Both the position numbers and the translations under genes were made by a program. A model generated the notes under the pieces. That model was not told the DNA's origin. It worked only from the letters and a program-made list of their open reading frames with translations, and made no database searches. DNA of 64,000 nt from the NCBI GenBank assembly GCA_000146045.2, contig BK006940.2, positions 64,001 to 128,000 on the forward strand, in the 5' to 3' direction. This DNA is from TPA_inf: Saccharomyces (taxonomy: Eukaryota). This document shows positions 243-37,478 of the stretch, piece after piece (within the stretch, counting starts at the first letter, position 1; each line of letters begins with the position of its first letter).

Positions 243-932
243 TTATTCGTCATCCTCTTCTTCGTCAGCATCTTCAGGGGTGACTTGATAGAAAACCAAT
301 TTGTATTGGTTTTGCCTTATAGAGACGAATCTGATCCAGTCTCTTAGCTGATTCTTCTTCAAATACTTCTTTGTTAGATATTTCAAGTATTTACCAGAAA
401 ATTTGGCACTGGATACTACAGTGACTATAGAACCATCTTCAGTAACCTCAATGGCGTTCCCTAAGTTTCCTACGGCACCATCTACTTTAATATGATCGAT
501 TAAGTACTTGGAATATGAAGCCGGATCGAAGACTCCGTTTTCAGTTGGAGAGGAAACGTCAACGGTTAAGGTTTTGATAACTTTTTGCTTTCTGGAAGTC
601 TGTTACAGTTTTATGTTAGTAATCCCAACTGAGATGAAATCATCCTTGTCGTTTGGACGAGGAAAAAATGTCTGGCCTACTGCTATTAACAATCACTTCA
701 TATAGCTAGAGAAAGCGCATTGCCTCTGTTAAAGCTATAAGGGGTGAATTTTTAAAATACAGAATAGCTGAATACATAAAAATGTAACTTCGAGATGGAA
801 TCCACTAGTTCGCTGTGAAAGCGGGACTGTTCAATGAACTGTAGGAATAGACAAACTTTTTAAAGATTTTATTTTCTTTCATGTTCTCTAATTGTGACAT
901 AGGAACGAAAATTAACGTACGTTTGGAGCCAT
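243..932 (-). CDS. RPL22B: 60S ribosomal protein L22, two exons: complement(join(243..599,921..932)); spliceosomal intron 600..920
   Basis: Reverse complement of 921..932 is ATGGCTCCAAAC (MAPN). It is followed by the 5' splice site GTACGT (rc of 915..920), branchpoint TACTAAC (rc of 615..621) and 3' AG (rc of 600..601). Exon 2 translates [26 protein letters not shown]...[16 protein letters not shown] then stop; the acidic C-terminus is typical of yeast L22. Not in the ORF track because exon 1 is only 12 nt. Confidence 0.85.
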
Positions 933-9386: not shown

Positions 9387-10427
9387 GTTATTATTACCAT
9401 TATCTTGAGGAAATGTTGAAAGACTGTGGTAAAGATCAGGAACCATTTCACTCGGGTTGATATCTATGGCGTCCTGACACAGCTCTCTTAAGGAGTCTAA
9501 AACTTGGTTAAGGAAGTTGTTGGAACGTACCTGTATCTGACTGCCCTTATACTCTGAATCTTTCGTGAAGTTTGCCAAGATCGCCTGTTGCTCAAGAAGA
9601 TTATCGTGTAGTAATTGTATGAGCGATTCCGTTCTATGCTCGCAAACGCAACTTTGCGAATGGGTCTCCAACCACCAAACAGGGACAAAGTTCTCACAGA
9701 CCCGGCATAGTTCCATTTTTGGCAGAGGTAGATTGAACTCGTCTATTATCATTTCCAGTCGTATTCTCTTCAAGTACTGCACGAAGATCTTAGCGCCGAA
9801 CCCAAGCGTCTTGGCGAACTCTTCGGGAAGTTGGATATCGATATCGTCGCAATTATCGGATAACTGGATGACCATGTCGTCTTGAGCGTCTTCGTTGGCA
9901 TAAAAGTCTGACCAGTCGTTTGTGCGAGGCTTGACTATCCACATCGTGTGAGAGGGCAACTGTGTGTGGCCATCCCTGATTAAGATACCACGTGCTTCCA
10001 AGGTCGTTATCGTACTTTCATCGTCACAGCCTGCGCTACCTTCATAGTCGGCTGCCTTTATCTTGAACGTTATAGTGCAACTGGTGTCATCATTCATGAG
10101 CAGCATGTCTGTGGCCTTTTGAAAGACACCTTTATCTTGATCGGATCCGAGAATAAGGTCTGCAATGTACGTCGGAGAAGAGCCACTATCATCGGCGACT
10201 CCTGTGATCGTGTTCCACTGTGGAGAGCCATATCGCACCTTGCCGTCCAGTTCCAGCTCCAAGATCATACACGGATTCTTCTCTGTGGCCAGCTGCAGAT
10301 ATTTTTCATAATTGGAGGAAGTCAATGAGCTTGGGTTCGAATTCGATGATATCGGGGAGAGCTTGTTTATGCCAAGTCCCTCTTTCATAGCCTGAGATCC
10401 GCCTGCGGTGTTACTTCTATTGAACAT
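5115..10427 (-). CDS. RIM15: Ser/Thr protein kinase of the PAS/Greatwall class with C-terminal receiver domain, 1770 aa
   Basis: 1770-aa ORF. Kinase motifs present: GAYGSVYLARKK, HRDLKPENLL, DFGLS, and a long kinase insert before GTPDYLAPE. Internal run of 16 Asn. Recognised as RIM15. Confidence 0.9.
9358..9399 (-). repeat. RIM15: (AAT)n trinucleotide repeat encoding the 16-Asn run of RIM15
   Basis: Plus strand (TTA)n with one GTT interruption: ttattattattattattattattattgttattatt. Confidence 0.9.
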
Positions 10428-11178
10428 CTGTCTTCCTCTACTGGGCTTATCTATTCTATCAAATGAGGCAAGAGAAAGGAAAGGGAAAAAAAAAAAGGGA
10501 AAATGCTTGATGAGTTAGGAATTCAGTAAAAGCACCCACCAGAACCTCTACAGCAGGCCTTCCAGGAGTGGTTAAGAGGATAGAGAATTCTGTATATATA
10601 TATACGTCTATATCTATACAAAAAACGGCAGACAATGCAGAAGTTGAAAATGCTGTGATACGAACAACAACTTATTTTTACAATGAAAAACAACACCAAG
10701 CTGCCAAAAGCTGTATATTAAAGTTAAAGCTCCCTCATTTTTAGTAAGGACGCTTTCTTTTCCCACAAAAGGGACGAGGAAAAAAAGAAAAACCTGGAAA
10801 TATAGTCACGTGACATGAATAAACAAGACCTAGGGCAATATGGAAAAAGAAGCTAGGATAAAAATACATTTATGAGGGTTGTAAGGCAAAGTGGCTCAGC
10901 ATTAAGTAGGGCTAAAAAGAGTCGCAAATATACATCGTACCGAGTGATGAACGTGGTTTTGAACACCTTGTTCTCTTTTGTTCTCGCTCCCTACATTCAC
11001 TATATATTAGAAGAAATTTCACCTCAATGGACAACTCGAGAAATGAATACAGAAATATGTTTTTTAGCGAAATTTTCCTTTCTTCTTGTCTTCTTGTTTT
11101 ATTTAAACTTCCAAGGCTTTAACTCAGTGTCAAACATAACAACCTCCTCCTCCCCCACCTACGACAACAACCGCCACT

Positions 11179-12147
11179 ATGGAAATGACTGATTTTGAAC
11201 TAACTAGTAATTCGCAATCGAACTTGGCTATCCCTACCAACTTCAAGTCGACTCTGCCTCCAAGGAAAAGAGCCAAGACAAAAGAGGAAAAGGAACAGCG
11301 AAGGATCGAGCGTATTTTGAGAAACAGAAGAGCTGCTCACCAGAGCAGAGAGAAAAAAAGACTACATCTGCAGTATCTCGAGAGAAAATGTTCTCTTTTG
11401 GAAAATTTACTGAACAGCGTCAACCTTGAAAAACTGGCTGACCACGAAGACGCGTTGACTTGCAGCCACGACGCTTTTGTTGCTTCTCTTGACGAGTACA
11501 GGGATTTCCAGAGCACGAGGGGCGCTTCACTGGACACCAGGGCCAGTTCGCACTCGTCGTCTGATACGTTCACACCTTCACCTCTGAACTGTACAATGGA
11601 GCCTGCGACTTTGTCGCCCAAGAGTATGCGCGATTCCGCGTCGGACCAAGAGACTTCATGGGAGCTGCAGATGTTTAAGACGGAAAATGTACCAGAGTCG
11701 ACGACGCTACCTGCCGTAGACAACAACAATTTGTTTGATGCGGTGGCCTCGCCGTTGGCAGACCCACTCTGCGACGATATAGCGGGAAACAGTCTACCCT
11801 TTGACAATTCAATTGATCTTGACAATTGGCGTAATCCAGCCGTGATTACGATGACCAGGAAACTACAGTGAACAAGAACACTAGCCCCAGCTTTTGCTTT
11901 CTGCTTTTTTTCTTTTTTTTTTTTTTTAGTCGTGGTTCTCTGATGGGGGAGGAGCCGGTTAAAGTACCTTCAAAAGCAGAATGCAGGGTTATTGGAAGCT
12001 TTCTTTTTTTCTTTTATGCTAGTTTTTCCTGAACAAATAGAGCCATTCTTTTCTTATTACTAAGAAATGGACGGCTTGCTTGTACTGTCCGAAGCGCAGT
12101 CAGGTTTGAATTCATTTGAATTGAATGATTTCTTCATCACTTCATGA
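11179..12147 (+). CDS. HAC1: bZIP UPR transcription factor, join(11179..11839,12092..12147) = 238 aa (Hac1i) after Ire1/tRNA-ligase splicing; the unspliced ORF 11179..11871 encodes the 230-aa Hac1u
   Basis: bZIP basic region KRAKTKEEKEQRRIERILRNRRAAHQSREKKR. The unspliced ORF ends ...NWRNPAVITMTRKLQ. Exon 2 (12092..12147) reads (E)AQSGLNSFELNDFFITS plus stop in frame with exon 1 once the 252 nt are removed. Confidence 0.9.
11840..12091 (+). other. HAC1: Unconventional 252-nt HAC1 intron with Ire1 cleavage stem-loops at both junctions
   Basis: 5' site: gtaatc CAG|CCGT gattac, a 6-bp perfect stem with 7-nt loop CNG|CNGN. 3' site: actgt CCG|AAGC gcagt, a 5-bp stem with 7-nt loop. No GT..AG or TACTAAC signals. 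Intron segment 11944..11957 (tgggggaggagccg) is complementary to 5' UTR 11144..11157 (ctcctcctccccca). Confidence 0.9.
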
Positions 12148-12830
12148 AGACAATCGCAAGAGGGTATAATTTTTTTTTTCTCGTTATTATCGCTGTTGGT
12201 GGGTTTTTTCTTTTCATATATTTCTTTTTCGCTTAGTGGTTTCTACTGTTCTGTCTCCGGTTAGTGTGTGCTACTTCAACCGAAGAAGAAGAGGCTTTTC
12301 AAGAATGCAAACGTGAGGTTGGCGCGCCCTCCTACAATTATTTGTGGCGACTGGGCAGCGACACTGAACATAGCTCTTGAACAAGACCCTTTTTTGGCTG
12401 CAAGGAGCAAGACTGGCTGGGGTTCCACCTCAAAGAGCCACGCTCTGCTTTTTTTCTATCTGTTTGTGTCATATCTATCTGTCTATTTATCTATATATAT
12501 ATTTTTTTATATAAAACTATAAAGAATTCTTGATGTATGCCCTTAGGTTGGGCAGCTTTTCAACCTTAGACTTGATGCTAACGCCGCTCTGTTCCTTCTC
12601 CCGTGCTCCCGCAAGCGAACATCTCCCCCTAACTCCGGGCCAATGAGTGATAACTATATCAAATACCTTCGAAAGGACCTTAGTCATCATATCACTCTCA
12701 CTCTCACGGCTCTCTGTAGTCCTCCTCGAGGAGTGGCCAAGAATGTTCTGTTCCGCAGTCTTTATATAATCGCACTGGTTGAAGACGAAAGCTCATATAA
12801 TTCTTTTTCCATAGCCTAAATACACCAACG

Positions 12831-13988
12831 ATGACTAAATCTGTAGATACGCTGCTGATCCCAGGCCCCATTATCCTAAGCGGAGCAGTCCAGAAGGCCC
12901 TGGACGTTCCCTCTTTGGGCCACACCTCTCCTGAGTTCGTCTCTATTTTTCAAAGGGTGCTAAAGAACACAAGAGCTGTCTTCAAATCCGCTGCTGCCTC
13001 GAAGTCTCAGCCTTTTGTGCTTGCCGGCTCTGGTACGTTGGGGTGGGACATATTTGCCTCGAACTTTATTCTTTCGAAGGCCCCCAACAAGAACGTGCTG
13101 GTCGTATCCACTGGGACATTTTCTGACAGGTTTGCTGACTGTCTGCGTAGCTACGGTGCGCAAGTAGATGTTGTTAGGCCCCTCAAGATAGGCGAATCAG
13201 TTCCCTTAGAACTGATTACTGAAAAGTTGTCGCAAAATAGCTATGGGGCTGTCACGGTTACGCACGTTGACACTTCAACGGCAGTGCTGTCCGATCTGAA
13301 AGCCATTTCGCAAGCGATTAAGCAGACTTCGCCGGAAACGTTCTTCGTAGTCGATGCTGTATGCTCGATTGGATGCGAAGAGTTTGAATTTGATGAATGG
13401 GGGGTGGATTTCGCCTTGACTGCTTCGCAAAAGGCTATTGGCGCTCCAGCGGGTCTTTCTATCTCGCTATGCAGTAGCAGATTCATGGATTATGCACTCA
13501 ACGACAGCAAAAATGGTCATGTACATGGGTATTTTTCCTCGTTGAGAAGATGGACACCAATAATGGAAAATTATGAGGCTGGTAAAGGAGCTTATTTTGC
13601 AACCCCACCCGTACAACTAATTAATAGCCTTGATGTAGCCTTGAAAGAAATTCTCGAAGAGGGGTTGCATAAGAGATGGGATTTGCACCGTGAAATGAGT
13701 GATTGGTTTAAAGACAGTTTGGTTAATGGCTTGCAATTGACATCCGTCAGTAGGTATCCTTCTAACATGTCTGCGCACGGGTTGACAGCCGTATACGTAG
13801 CAGATCCTCCTGATGTCATTGCTTTTTTAAAGTCACACGGTGTAGTCATTGCCGGAGGTATTCACAAGGACATCGGACCCAAGTATATCCGTATTGGACA
13901 TATGGGTGTGACCGCTTGCAACAAGAATTTACCGTACATGAAGAACTGCTTCGACTTAATAAAACTAGCTCTTCAGAGGAAAAAGTGA
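12831..13988 (+). CDS. AGX1: Alanine:glyoxylate aminotransferase (class V aminotransferase), 385 aa
   Basis: 385-aa ORF recognised as AGX1; PLP-lysine region ...TASQKAIGAPAG. Confidence 0.85.
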   Translation: MTKSVDTLLIPGPIILSGAVQKALDVPSLGHTSPEFVSIFQRVLKNTRAVFKSAAASKSQPFVLAGSGTLGWDIFASNFILSKAPNKNVLVVSTGTFSDRFADCLRSYGAQVDVVRPLKIGESVPLELITEKLSQNSYGAVTVTHVDTSTAVLSDLKAISQAIKQTSPETFFVVDAVCSIGCEEFEFDEWGVDFALTASQKAIGAPAGLSISLCSSRFMDYALNDSKNGHVHGYFSSLRRWTPIMENYEAGKGAYFATPPVQLINSLDVALKEILEEGLHKRWDLHREMSDWFKDSLVNGLQLTSVSRYPSNMSAHGLTAVYVADPPDVIAFLKSHGVVIAGGIHKDIGPKYIRIGHMGVTACNKNLPYMKNCFDLIKLALQRKK

Positions 13989-20144: not shown

Positions 20145-23100
20145 CTAATGTATTGTTTCGAAAAATAGCAACCAGGCACATATTATGTTCACCAAGTGGT
20201 GTATCCAGTACAGATTTCTTATTCCATAAATGAAACTGAAAACGGTTAAGTACACAAATAAAATGATGGTAACTTTACCATCCCACGTGTCTAAAGGTAC
20301 GCTGTTTGGCATTTTGAAAATAGAATTATTTCCAACCAAAAAAATAATTGGTGCCACTGCTAGTATATTGTGATGGGATCTAAATGAAGTTTCCCATTTG
20401 ATGGCAACATTATGCAGGAAAACAATAATGATAGGGATGTTAATGGCACTAACAAATAATAAAAGCAGAAGCAACGTCATATTATAATTTAGTAAGTTCA
20501 ATTTCTGCTCGTTGTTTGATAGTTTCAACAGCGCTACTCTAATGCAGGTAGCAATTTGGATTACTAATGAGATAACAAACGCCATCTGGTATGGTATGTG
20601 AAAAAATACCAACAGTAATAAAAGCACAGATGCCATTAATCTTCCCTTACCATACGCTTTATGTTCAATAGTATCAAAAGCCTCTTTATCTTCAGTGTTT
20701 TTCTTTGATAACTTCCGTTGAAGGAATATTACTAAAATTTCCAAGGATCCAAAAATCTTAGAAACTAGTGCTAGTAATCCAACTGTCATAACCCCAAAGA
20801 GAATTCCAATAGTTGACATAAACCAATCTCTGATCCCCAAATAATAAAAATTTGCATGCATGTTTCTCTCGGATAGCAGAAATGGATAATTTAAACCGAC
20901 AGGATCCAATAAATAAAGTATTCGTTGTACCAACTTATTATTAACCACAGGCGAAGCTAAGAACAGCGTAAAAAACATTAATATTCCGTGCTTTCTTAAA
21001 ATATATCCCAAAGTGCTATCAAAGGAAGGAAACTCAGATGTCTTGTTGTACCAGTAGAACTGGTATGACAGTACGAGTGCTATAAACGCGACTGGAAAAG
21101 ATGCTAGTGCTAATCTGTACCTGATAAACAGCATTTTCAAAGTTAAAGACCAATTAATAGTCATTTTAGCTTCTAAGGACATTCCGGGTGGAATAAAAAA
21201 ACTTAATTGTAGCGATCTCGGTTCGCTTTCATTTAATGGGATAAACGGTGCTACATTATGCATATTTATATCGAGACTTTTGTTTATAATATTTAGATGC
21301 CATTTAGACTCGAAAGGTTCGTAAACCCATTGCCTTATGAAAGGCTGAAACAATGTCTCTTCGGAAGCAATACCTTCGTTGCTTGCCTCAATCTTGGTTT
21401 CTAATTTGTACGATAATAAAGAATCCCACAAATTACTGAAACTTATAACCTGCTCGATGTCTTTGCCATCCAAGTGTAGTTGTTCTCCAAAGAGCAATAT
21501 TTGAGAAGGTGTAGTATTGACTATTTGTACATTGGAGACGTTGCGCAGTAATGCCAAAAGAAACCCCTGATTGTCCTCCATGCCTTCTTGTTCTGAAAAT
21601 TCACCGTAAGTGGGTTTGCTTATCATCAAGTAGTCGTACTTCTGTAGTATATTCTTGCCAACACTAACGGCTTTAAACGGATTTTTTGCTTCTCCAAAAG
21701 AAGAATCAGCTGCGAACTGAGTATCTTTTGAAGACCTGGGCACTGTTAGAATACTATCAACAGCTGTTATACAGCTTAGATTCACCCTGGACTCTGTACA
21801 GAAATAGATCATAGGCATATCGAGACTAGTTAATAATGTGAAATGCAGGTGTTCAGTGGAGGAGATGTTACTCGGAATATTTATTTTTGTATAATTGTTG
21901 TGCCACTTTTCCAGGTTAAACATTTCAAAATCTAGGACATCGTTCATTTCCAAAGTAGCGTAATCAGAAAAGAAGTTGTCACTAAATTCTTGTAAGTTTT
22001 CTTGAGGATAATTTAACTTACTATTCATCCATGAGTAGTCTTCAAACCCTGAAAGCAATAGTTTTCTAGCGATTTGCAATCTCTGATTCAATGGCTTAAC
22101 TTTTTCAGGTTTGGAGGCATCTATACTTTCCAATAAAAGGCGCGCTAGTACCTCTCTTAATTGCTTGCACCAAACAATGGCTAAATGATCAATTGGAGTC
22201 CAAACATCTGGAATAGTAGTTGTGAAGCTGGTGAACCCATTTTCTAAGCTAACCAAATCTTCTACAGATGCATAATCTGCAGGTAAAGTAGTATCCAATA
22301 TACCGCCTGTAATGGAAACCAATGAAATGTTCTTAGAGAAAAAAGAATCGTTTTGGGATAACTGCTTTCTCCAATATTCGTTTGTATTTTTGTAAAGCTT
22401 TAAAATGTCACCATCAAAGGTTACTGGTGAAGCAGCATGAGGTGATGATAAGGTCAATATGGTGCTTATACTTCCCGGTACGTGGTTCTTCAAAGTTAGC
22501 ATGACCCTGGATACAATACCGCCCATGGAATGTCCCACGATAATAACTGACTGCGGTTTTGGATGTGGGTAATCAGGGGTCCTTTCGTAAAGAGACAAGA
22601 TGTACTTAATGGCATCATTTAGGTATTCAGCTTGATCAAGCATTGTTTCACCATGAAACGCAGTGAAATCTTCATTGAAATCTGCCGTAAAGAAGTCCAA
22701 ATTTCGCACATTTTCGTTACGCAGAGTCGCCCTGGTATTGGAATCAAAATATATATTGGAGCAAGCGGAAGCAATCGATCTGCATTGCCTAAAAGAACCT
22801 GCATTTCCGGGTATAAAAAGTACAGGGATACCATCAAGTTGTAACTCATCACCATTTAAAGGTTCTCGGTCTACGCTTTGTTCTCGATACAAGTAAAGAT
22901 GATACTTGTGTGCCAGTGGTGTATACCTCTCGTCAAATCCATCGATCCTTGCGTAAGATGGAAACATATAGATAGATTCACACTGAGGAGCATCTGCACC
23001 ATTAAAAGGTTTCAGTAGCGATATCAATAAAAGCGAGCAAATGCTTAAAATGCCAAGAATAGAGAAAAGGCGATATGTGTAAGGTTTTTTTGCTATCTTA

Positions 23101-23234
23101 TCATTGTTCATATATTTGGGGGAAGCTTTATCCTGGTCTTCACGCGTAGCGAGTACTCTCGAGTATTGACCAGATGAGTTAACTTTATTAATTATGGGCC
23201 GCGTTATAACACTAACTAATCTCCTGATACCCAT
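20145..23234 (-). CDS. BST1: GPI inositol deacylase (PGAP1 family lipase), 1029 aa; the track ORF extends 35 codons further upstream to 23339 but the likely start is the Met at 23232..23234
   Basis: Lipase motif GHSMGG. Recognised as BST1, 1029 aa, starting [17 protein letters not shown]. Multiple C-terminal TM segments. Confidence 0.8.
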
Positions 23235-23846
23235 AACGAAATGAAGATTTTTGTATGATGGTAAGCCTAAGATATAGGCCAATGCTTTAAAGTAGAGGGA
23301 GTATTTCGAGTGTGAATTTACTATCAGATGGAACTGCAAGGAATGTGTTGAGACTCATTTTTACTTTTTCTTGTTATGACTTGGTTGGTATATTTAGACC
23401 TTTTTCAAAATTCGCGCCATACAGGAAAAAAAAATGGATAATAAGAAGAAATGCATTTATTTGAGGGTACCTAGTGAGTTATGCAATTGTCTATATAAGA
23501 GTATGAATCTAACTTAAATACATCAAGCATTTGGGATGAAATCATGCGAAAAATCAAAAGGTCACAACCGTGTGAAATGGAAATTAAAAAAAACGTTAAA
23601 AATATGTAGTCTTGTGAAGGTGATAATATTACAGCCGGATGATACTTGCTATTTTTCTTTTGAAATTTATTGTAGTTATCTTTTTTTGTTTTTTGTTTTT
23701 TTTCATTATTATTGCGTTATCGGTGTTCATTTCGGTGATTTGAATCTTCAGTAATGTTGCCTCGACTTTCGTAGTAAACTTTGAATGTCAGGTTTGTTAA
23801 ATGCCAATGCGTAGAAAGATGTTCGAGAGGTACAAAGTTGTGCTGC

Positions 23847-37375: not shown

Positions 37376-37478
37376 GGGCGTGTGGTCTAGTGGTATGATT
37401 CTCGCTTTGGGCGACTTCCTGAATAAACAGGAAGACAAAGCATGCGAGAGGCCCTGGGTTCAATTCCCAGCTCGCCCC
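37376..37478 (+). tRNA. tP(UGG): tRNA-Pro (anticodon UGG) with a 31-nt intron (37412..37442) 3' of the anticodon
   Basis: GGGCGTGTGGTCTAGTGGTATGATTCTCGCTTTGGG [intron cgacttcctgaataaacaggaagacaaagca] TGCGAGAGGCCCTGGGTTCAATTCCCAGCTCGCCCC. Acceptor, D, anticodon and T stems all pair, the T-loop is GTTCAAT, and a T-run terminator follows at 37480..37488. End coordinate +/-1. Confidence 0.9.

Follow-up and report, generated by a model that had tools for sequence, protein, structure and literature searches.

The HAC1 locus

The yeast unfolded protein response has HAC1 (YFL031W) as its effector, and the gene is the founding example of cytoplasmic, spliceosome-independent splicing of messenger RNA (mRNA) and of intron-based translational control. 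Here we describe the HAC1 locus in a stretch of 64,000 nucleotides (nt) from the Saccharomyces assembly GCA_000146045.2 (contig BK006940.2, positions 64,001 to 128,000 of the forward strand), which we call the window and whose own numbering is used throughout. On the plus strand, an open reading frame (ORF) at 11179..11871 encodes Hac1u, a protein of 230 amino acids (aa) with the C-terminus AVITMTRKLQ. It is a 100% match to a protein that the source names 'Hac1 [Saccharomyces cerevisiae]' and 'Isoform U of Transcriptional activator HAC1' (UniProt). Residues 37-86 contain the Pfam domain bZIP_2 (E = 2.7e-05, passing the cut-off), while bZIP_1 aligns to the same residues slightly under its cut-off.

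The identity of the locus was established by exact-protein look-ups and then through the contigs that these returned. Two public S. cerevisiae contigs (L015 and L016) agree with the window at every position of a segment of 3693 base pairs (bp; 9679..13371), and a third S. cerevisiae contig departs from the window only at the ends of aligned stretches and in the lengths of homopolymer runs. Other S. cerevisiae strains showed no differences in the splice-site hairpins, in the duplex between leader and intron, or in the conserved blocks of the 3' untranslated region (UTR). We can therefore say with near certainty that this is wild-type S. cerevisiae HAC1, an intact reference allele with its known post-transcriptional switch. 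An earlier description of the window made from its letters alone (the sequence-only reading) had likewise called the locus intact, and the agreement of Hac1u with UniProt isoform U and of the 3693 bp with public contigs bears this out. Gene order was constant in all Saccharomyces loci fetched, with a large RIM15-like kinase upstream and an Aminotran_5 gene downstream. The sizes of the ORFs in the window fit the part of the chromosome VI left arm that runs from RIM15 to SMC1. The features of the locus are collected in Table 1.

Table 1. Coordinates of HAC1 features in window numbering (CDS, coding sequence; a slash within a sequence marks the splice junction)
Feature	Position	Strand	Description
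HAC1 5' leader	11111..11178	+	68-nt length from PMC8881652; start site literature-based
Duplex, leader half	11141..11159	+	core 11147..11157 (CUCCUCCCCCA); flanks 11141..11144 and 11159
Exon 1 CDS	11179..11839	+	220 codons plus 1 nt; bZIP domain at residues 37-86
5' splice-site hairpin	11830..11850	+	stem 11830-36 x 11844-50; loop CAG/CCGU 11837-43; Ire1 cut after G11839
Hac1u-specific tail codons	11839..11871	+	AVITMTRKLQ plus TGA stop; tail a degron per PMC5114014
Unconventional intron	11840..12091	+	252 nt; no spliceosomal signals
Duplex, intron half	11942..11960	+	core 11944..11954 (UGGGGGAGGAG)
3' splice-site hairpin	12084..12100	+	stem 12084-88 x 12096-12100, including a U-G closing pair; loop CCG/AAGC 12089-95; Ire1 cut after G12091
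Exon 2 CDS	12092..12147	+	18-aa tail EAQSGLNSFELNDFFITS plus TGA stop
3' UTR extended stem-loop	12270..12408	+	likely 3' bipartite element (3' BE); invariant blocks 12318..12333 and 12353..12367

Excision of the intron and exchange of C-terminal tails

When G11839 is joined to A12092 with 11840..12091 removed, the resulting frame encodes a 238-aa protein, Hac1i, that ends in EAQSGLNSFELNDFFITS and stops at 12145..12147. Because 252 is a multiple of three, the tails are exchanged without a frameshift, through an in-frame stop lying 10 codons into the intron. The sequence-only reading had proposed that splicing swaps the 10-aa AVITMTRKLQ for the 18-aa EAQSGLNSFELNDFFITS, and excision followed by translation gives exactly this result. 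The published Ire1 cuts, G661 and G913 (PMC8881652), correspond base for base to G11839 and G12091, and cleavage by Ire1 induced by endoplasmic reticulum (ER) stress, together with joining by tRNA ligase, is known from experiments on identical sequence (PMC8881652, PMC6627864). The published work already reports that DTT or tunicamycin induces a 252-nt size shift in RT-PCR across 11839/12092, that the shift is lost in ire1-delta cells, that recombinant Ire1 cuts at G11839 and G12091, and that mutants of either half of the leader-intron duplex derepress Hac1u in an ire1-delta duh1-delta background.

Conservation was assessed in two sets of yeasts, the first comprising S. cerevisiae and the loci of S. 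paradoxus, S. mikatae, S. kudriavzevii, S. uvarum and S. eubayanus, and the second six more distant Saccharomycetaceae (N. castellii, Z. rouxii, K. lactis, L. fermentati, T. globosa and K. africana). After in-silico excision the WRNP/EAQS junction is kept in 12 of 12 species, and the spliced tail EAQSGLNSFELNDFFITS is identical in all six Saccharomyces. The tail that is peculiar to Hac1u is also well conserved within Saccharomyces, where 91% of its DNA columns are invariant, changes in the Leu codon are synonymous, and nine of the ten residues are identical. This intron-encoded decapeptide has been reported to be a Duh1-dependent degron, which acts as a second, independent silencer (PMC5114014). 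Its last residue (11866..11868) varies: S. cerevisiae and S. paradoxus have Q there, S. mikatae has L, and the other three Saccharomyces species have H; this contrasts with a published statement that the differences among five Saccharomyces species are all synonymous (PMC8002603).

Pairing between the 5' leader and the intron

The sequence-only reading had drawn attention to two strings, ctcctcctccccca at 11144..11157 and tgggggaggagccg at 11944..11957, as complementary over 11 or more contiguous nt. Both are present at those positions, and 11147..11157 forms 11 contiguous Watson-Crick pairs with 11944..11954, a length attained in 11 of 2000 shuffles (about 0.005). The energy of the duplex was equalled by none of 1000 intron shuffles and by one of 1000 leader shuffles. 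When the full-length mRNA (1036 nt) was folded, the core pairs had probabilities of 0.88-1.0, and additional flanking pairs (11141-44 with 11957-60, and 11159 with 11942) bring the total to 16 bp. The duplex described in the literature, -38..-20 with 764..782 and a core of A(-22)..C(-32) with U766..G776 (PMC8881652), falls at the same window positions when the A of the ATG is placed at 11179. Given the published 68-nt leader, it starts 30-36 nt from the cap, and 11 bp are reported to be enough for repression (PMC8881652).

The pairing is maintained across Saccharomyces, in leaders that have otherwise diverged. The intron motif GGGGGAGGAG is invariant in six of six species and the leader motif CTCCTCCCCC is kept in six of six leaders, while only 38% of leader columns are invariant apart from the pairing motif. 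Each species has a perfect complement of 10-12 nt between leader and intron, matched in each case by at most 1 of 200 shuffles.

Two accounts have been given of how the duplex silences the unspliced mRNA, and sequence alone does not separate them. The sequence-only reading had invoked stalled translation, that is, the older model in which elongating ribosomes are arrested by the duplex; this is said to be the original model of Rüegsegger, based on the polysome-like sedimentation of HAC1u mRNA. Elongation stalling was historically accepted on the strength of that sedimentation and is still drawn so in PMC4279078. The evidence since published nonetheless makes it most improbable. No other expressed yeast gene has so few ribosome footprints as HAC1u, its sedimentation is unchanged when the ORF is cut to 21 nt, and heparin shifts 83% of the mRNA into non-translating fractions (PMC5114014). 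Furthermore, the duplex stands about 30 nt from the cap, and translation is derepressed either by adding 24 nt between cap and duplex or by overexpressing eIF4A (PMC8881652). According to current published evidence, then, the duplex blocks the initiation of translation (PMC5114014, PMC8881652), and in this respect the sequence-only reading had followed an older account.

The interaction of leader and intron may extend to a second helix that has not been described, formed by 11159..11165 (CUACGAC) and 11929..11935 (GUCGUGG), which we think doubtful. It is suggested by an invariant intron block together with co-folds in all six Saccharomyces species. The block, TCGTGGTTCT (11930..11939), is identical throughout the genus and overlaps the candidate helix; positions 11929..11939 are predicted to pair with the leader at 11159..11176, between the known duplex and the AUG. 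The candidate adjoins the known core across an internal loop and lies outside the published duplex, which ends at -20/764. All seven pairs can form in S. cerevisiae, S. paradoxus and S. mikatae, and five to six in the other three species. Weighing against the helix are a chance expectation of about 3.6% in S. cerevisiae, the close relationship of the three species that match best, and the reported sufficiency of 11 bp for repression. If real, it would bring the blocked region nearer to the AUG.

Splice-site hairpins and their conservation

According to the sequence-only reading, both junctions lie in 7-nt loops closed by short stems. The strings that it quoted, gtaatcCAG/CCGTgattac and actgtCCG/AAGCgcagt, are found at 11831..11849 and 12084..12100 respectively, and folding supports the 3' hairpin outright, its minimum-energy structure being a 5-bp stem with a 7-nt loop. 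The 5' hairpin has a stem of 6-7 bp (7 if C11830-G11850 is counted), and here the expected open loop was missed by a small margin: at -2.7 kcal/mol it is the second-best fold, behind a structure of -3.3 kcal/mol. The gap of 0.6 kcal/mol is inside the error of the energy model, and the scissile G11839/C11840 is unpaired in both folds. Within the 1036-nt unspliced mRNA both stems belong to the minimum-energy structure, with pair probabilities of 0.94-0.99 for the 5' stem and 0.74-0.91 for the 3' stem.

Among the six Saccharomyces species the junctions sit in invariant blocks, one of 47 nt across the 5' junction and two of 16 nt and 32 nt around the 3' junction. The sole break is in S. eubayanus, whose 3' loop has CTG for CCG, a difference that falls on the free N of CNG. 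Intron length ranges over 227-260 nt in the other Saccharomyces. In all six distant yeasts the same two hairpins recur, the first at the end of the unspliced bZIP ORF and the second 99-297 nt downstream, and excision again restores WRNP/EAQS. The loops of all 12 species fit the consensus CNG/(C or A)NGN. Each hairpin has one stem position where both sides of the pair differ: a U-A pair is replaced by C-G in K. lactis, and a C-G pair by U-A in K. africana.

Nothing of substance tells against reading the locus as HAC1 with its known switch, although four lesser results stand on that side. The most stable 5' fold contains an additional C11837-G11842 pair and a bulged U11843, and the bases so paired, C(-3) and G(+3), are conserved in the Ire1 motif. 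Stems of at least 5 bp enclosing CNGNNGN occur 11 times on the plus strand of the window and twice on the minus strand, where some 4.3 would be expected on each. Covariation in the two stems, compared with shuffles, is not significant with 12 species (148/500 and 58/500), because the stems are nearly invariant; they are conserved rather than covarying, and it is published mutagenesis that supports their structural role. Finally, Rfam searches, permissive on 10500..13000 and at the gathering threshold on the whole window, matched no family to the intron, to either hairpin or to the 3' UTR element, so that there is no independent model-based confirmation.

The second of these results bears on the proposal that hairpins and complementarity are chance matches in an ordinary gene that is not spliced. 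It gains something from the 13 occurrences of stem and motif in the window, among them a second plus-strand pair 257 nt apart, and from short-hairpin z-scores that are weak (-1 to -3.3). It also gains from a loose scan of duplex energy in which, of about 1010 other 252-nt chunks of the window set against the leader, six score at least as well as the intron. That scan discriminates poorly, and contiguous pairing with shuffles is the better test. Stem plus CNGNNGN, taken alone, is likewise not discriminating, and is far too common to serve in finding new Ire1 substrates. Because the hairpin motif is not rare and the z-scores are weak, the case for HAC1 splicing rests on the combination of signals, on conservation and on identity to a characterised gene, and not on the motif. 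On those grounds coincidence is virtually inconceivable: the two hairpins are invariant over six species in which only 47% of the intron interior is invariant, and they recur in distant yeasts at the end of a bZIP ORF, where excision restores a conserved tail. The 11-bp match is rare among shuffles and has persisted in six leaders that have diverged; the locus agrees at every base with a gene characterised by experiment, and Ire1-dependent excision of the 252 nt has already been demonstrated in published work.

The second plus-strand pair, at 22914 and 23171, lies inside and antisense to the minus-strand ORF 20145..23339, and one of its loops has T at position 4, unlike the C or A of known sites. 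It was considered as a pair of Ire1 sites and judged a chance occurrence, antisense within a long ORF.

A conventional spliceosomal intron is just as implausible as chance: although TACTAAG, close to the branchpoint consensus, is found 27 nt upstream of the 3' junction (12058..12064), it is not kept in other Saccharomyces species and its deletion is reported to leave splicing unaffected (PMC6627864), while the intron begins with CCGTGA and ends with TCCG, and a search of 11840..12091 for GTATGT, TACTAAC and a 3'-terminal YAG found none, in agreement with what the sequence-only reading had said of the 252-nt intron.

The 3' UTR element and flanking sequence

The sequence-only reading had credited 11140..12150 with the full set of regulatory signals, which is too strong. 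The tail is also a degron, and a 3' UTR stem-loop at about 12270..12408 lies outside that interval. This stem-loop has a fold energy of -58.3 kcal/mol (z = -2.4), and its consensus fold contains 40 pairs, two of them, in the lower stem, changed on both sides. The two invariant blocks occupy opposite strands of the distal stem. The 3' BE is known to target HAC1 mRNA to Ire1 foci (PMC4279078, PMC6627864), and 12270..12408 is likely to be this element; the assignment draws on descriptions in later papers, on the fold and on conservation, and the position is approximate.

Upstream of the gene, the HAC1 promoter contains a palindromic TCACGTGA with a CACGTG core at 10807..10812, about -372 from the ATG. 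The heptamer TCACGTG is kept at -358 to -411 in six of six Saccharomyces species, and the site could be an E-box or a bZIP-type (ACGTG) element. An ORF of 106 aa (10872..11192, plus strand) overlaps the promoter, the leader and the first codons of HAC1; the alignment begins inside it, at 11080, and conservation is poor over the part covered. This ORF probably does not represent a genuine gene.

Annotations of the start codon differ. In S. paradoxus and in several S. cerevisiae strains HAC1 is begun at the second Met (MTDFE...), giving proteins of 228 and 236 aa where the full forms have 230 and 238 aa. Since the upstream ATGGAA is present in the DNA, this is a difference of annotation and not of sequence.

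Post-transcriptional control of HAC1

The features described above make up the known switch. From sequence come the ORFs, the junction hairpins, the duplex, the conservation and the identity to the reference; published experiments supply the cleavage by Ire1, the ligation, the block to initiation, the degron and the role in targeting. In unstressed cells, pairing of 11141..11159 with 11942..11960 (an 11-bp core, 16 bp in all), some 30 nt from the cap, blocks initiation, and any Hac1u that leaks through carries the intron-encoded AVITMTRKLQ degron as a second silencer. Under ER stress a 3' UTR stem-loop brings the mRNA to clusters of Ire1, which cuts after the position-3 G of the two 7-nt loops (G11839 and G12091), leaving tRNA ligase to join the exons. 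Loss of the 252-nt intron thereby removes both silencers at once, and the 18-aa activating tail replaces the 10-aa tail.

A tRNA gene is also present in the window, at 37376..37478 on the plus strand (Rfam, 48.7 bits), in which about 34 nt are inserted next to the anticodon loop. From the loop CUUUGGG the anticodon is read as UGG (Pro). An ARAGORN scan of the window reported no tRNA, presumably owing to the intron in this gene. Such tRNA introns use the same ligase as HAC1.

The Ire1-cut intron and the self-silencing pairing have been known and tested for more than twenty years, and all the features listed for this reference allele have been dissected by experiment. An intact HAC1 in a window of yeast chromosome VI is nothing new, and its value is that of a positive control: a reading from sequence alone placed both splice junctions and the long-range pairing with single-base accuracy.

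Comparison with known systems

The closest comparison is with S. cerevisiae HAC1 (YFL031W) itself, from which the window does not differ: the protein, the 3.7 kb of DNA, the cut sites (G661 and G913) and the duplex (-38..-20 with 764..782) are all the same. HAC1 orthologues of the distant yeasts resemble it in their two hairpins and in the WRNP/EAQS junction, and are unlike it in other respects; their introns are 99-297 nt long, only AVIT of the Hac1u tail is common to them, and the CTCCTCCCCC/GGGGGAGGAG duplex is absent. The 5' UTR block is described in the literature as confined to Saccharomyces. Some of the distant orthologues have unrelated leader-intron complementarity instead. In K. lactis the leader at -54..-44 has an 11-nt perfect complement, CTGTGAGACGG, to the 297-nt intron, of unrelated sequence and matched by 3 of 200 shuffles; the corresponding complements are 11 nt in K. 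africana (7/200) and 9 nt in T. globosa (5/200).

Beyond the yeasts, metazoan XBP1 and plant bZIP60 share with HAC1 the twin stem-loops, the 7-nt loops of the CNG/CNGN type and the Ire1 cut after the G at position 3, and in each case excision turns the C-terminus of a bZIP factor into its active form. For ligation yeast relies on the tRNA ligase Trl1, and metazoans on RtcB. XBP1 and bZIP60 have introns of 20-26 nt whose removal shifts the frame, whereas the HAC1 intron of 252 nt is a multiple of three and presents an in-frame stop after 10 codons. The leader-intron duplex, the Duh1-dependent degron tail and the 3' BE are features of the Saccharomyces type of HAC1, and in these it is unlike both XBP1 and bZIP60.

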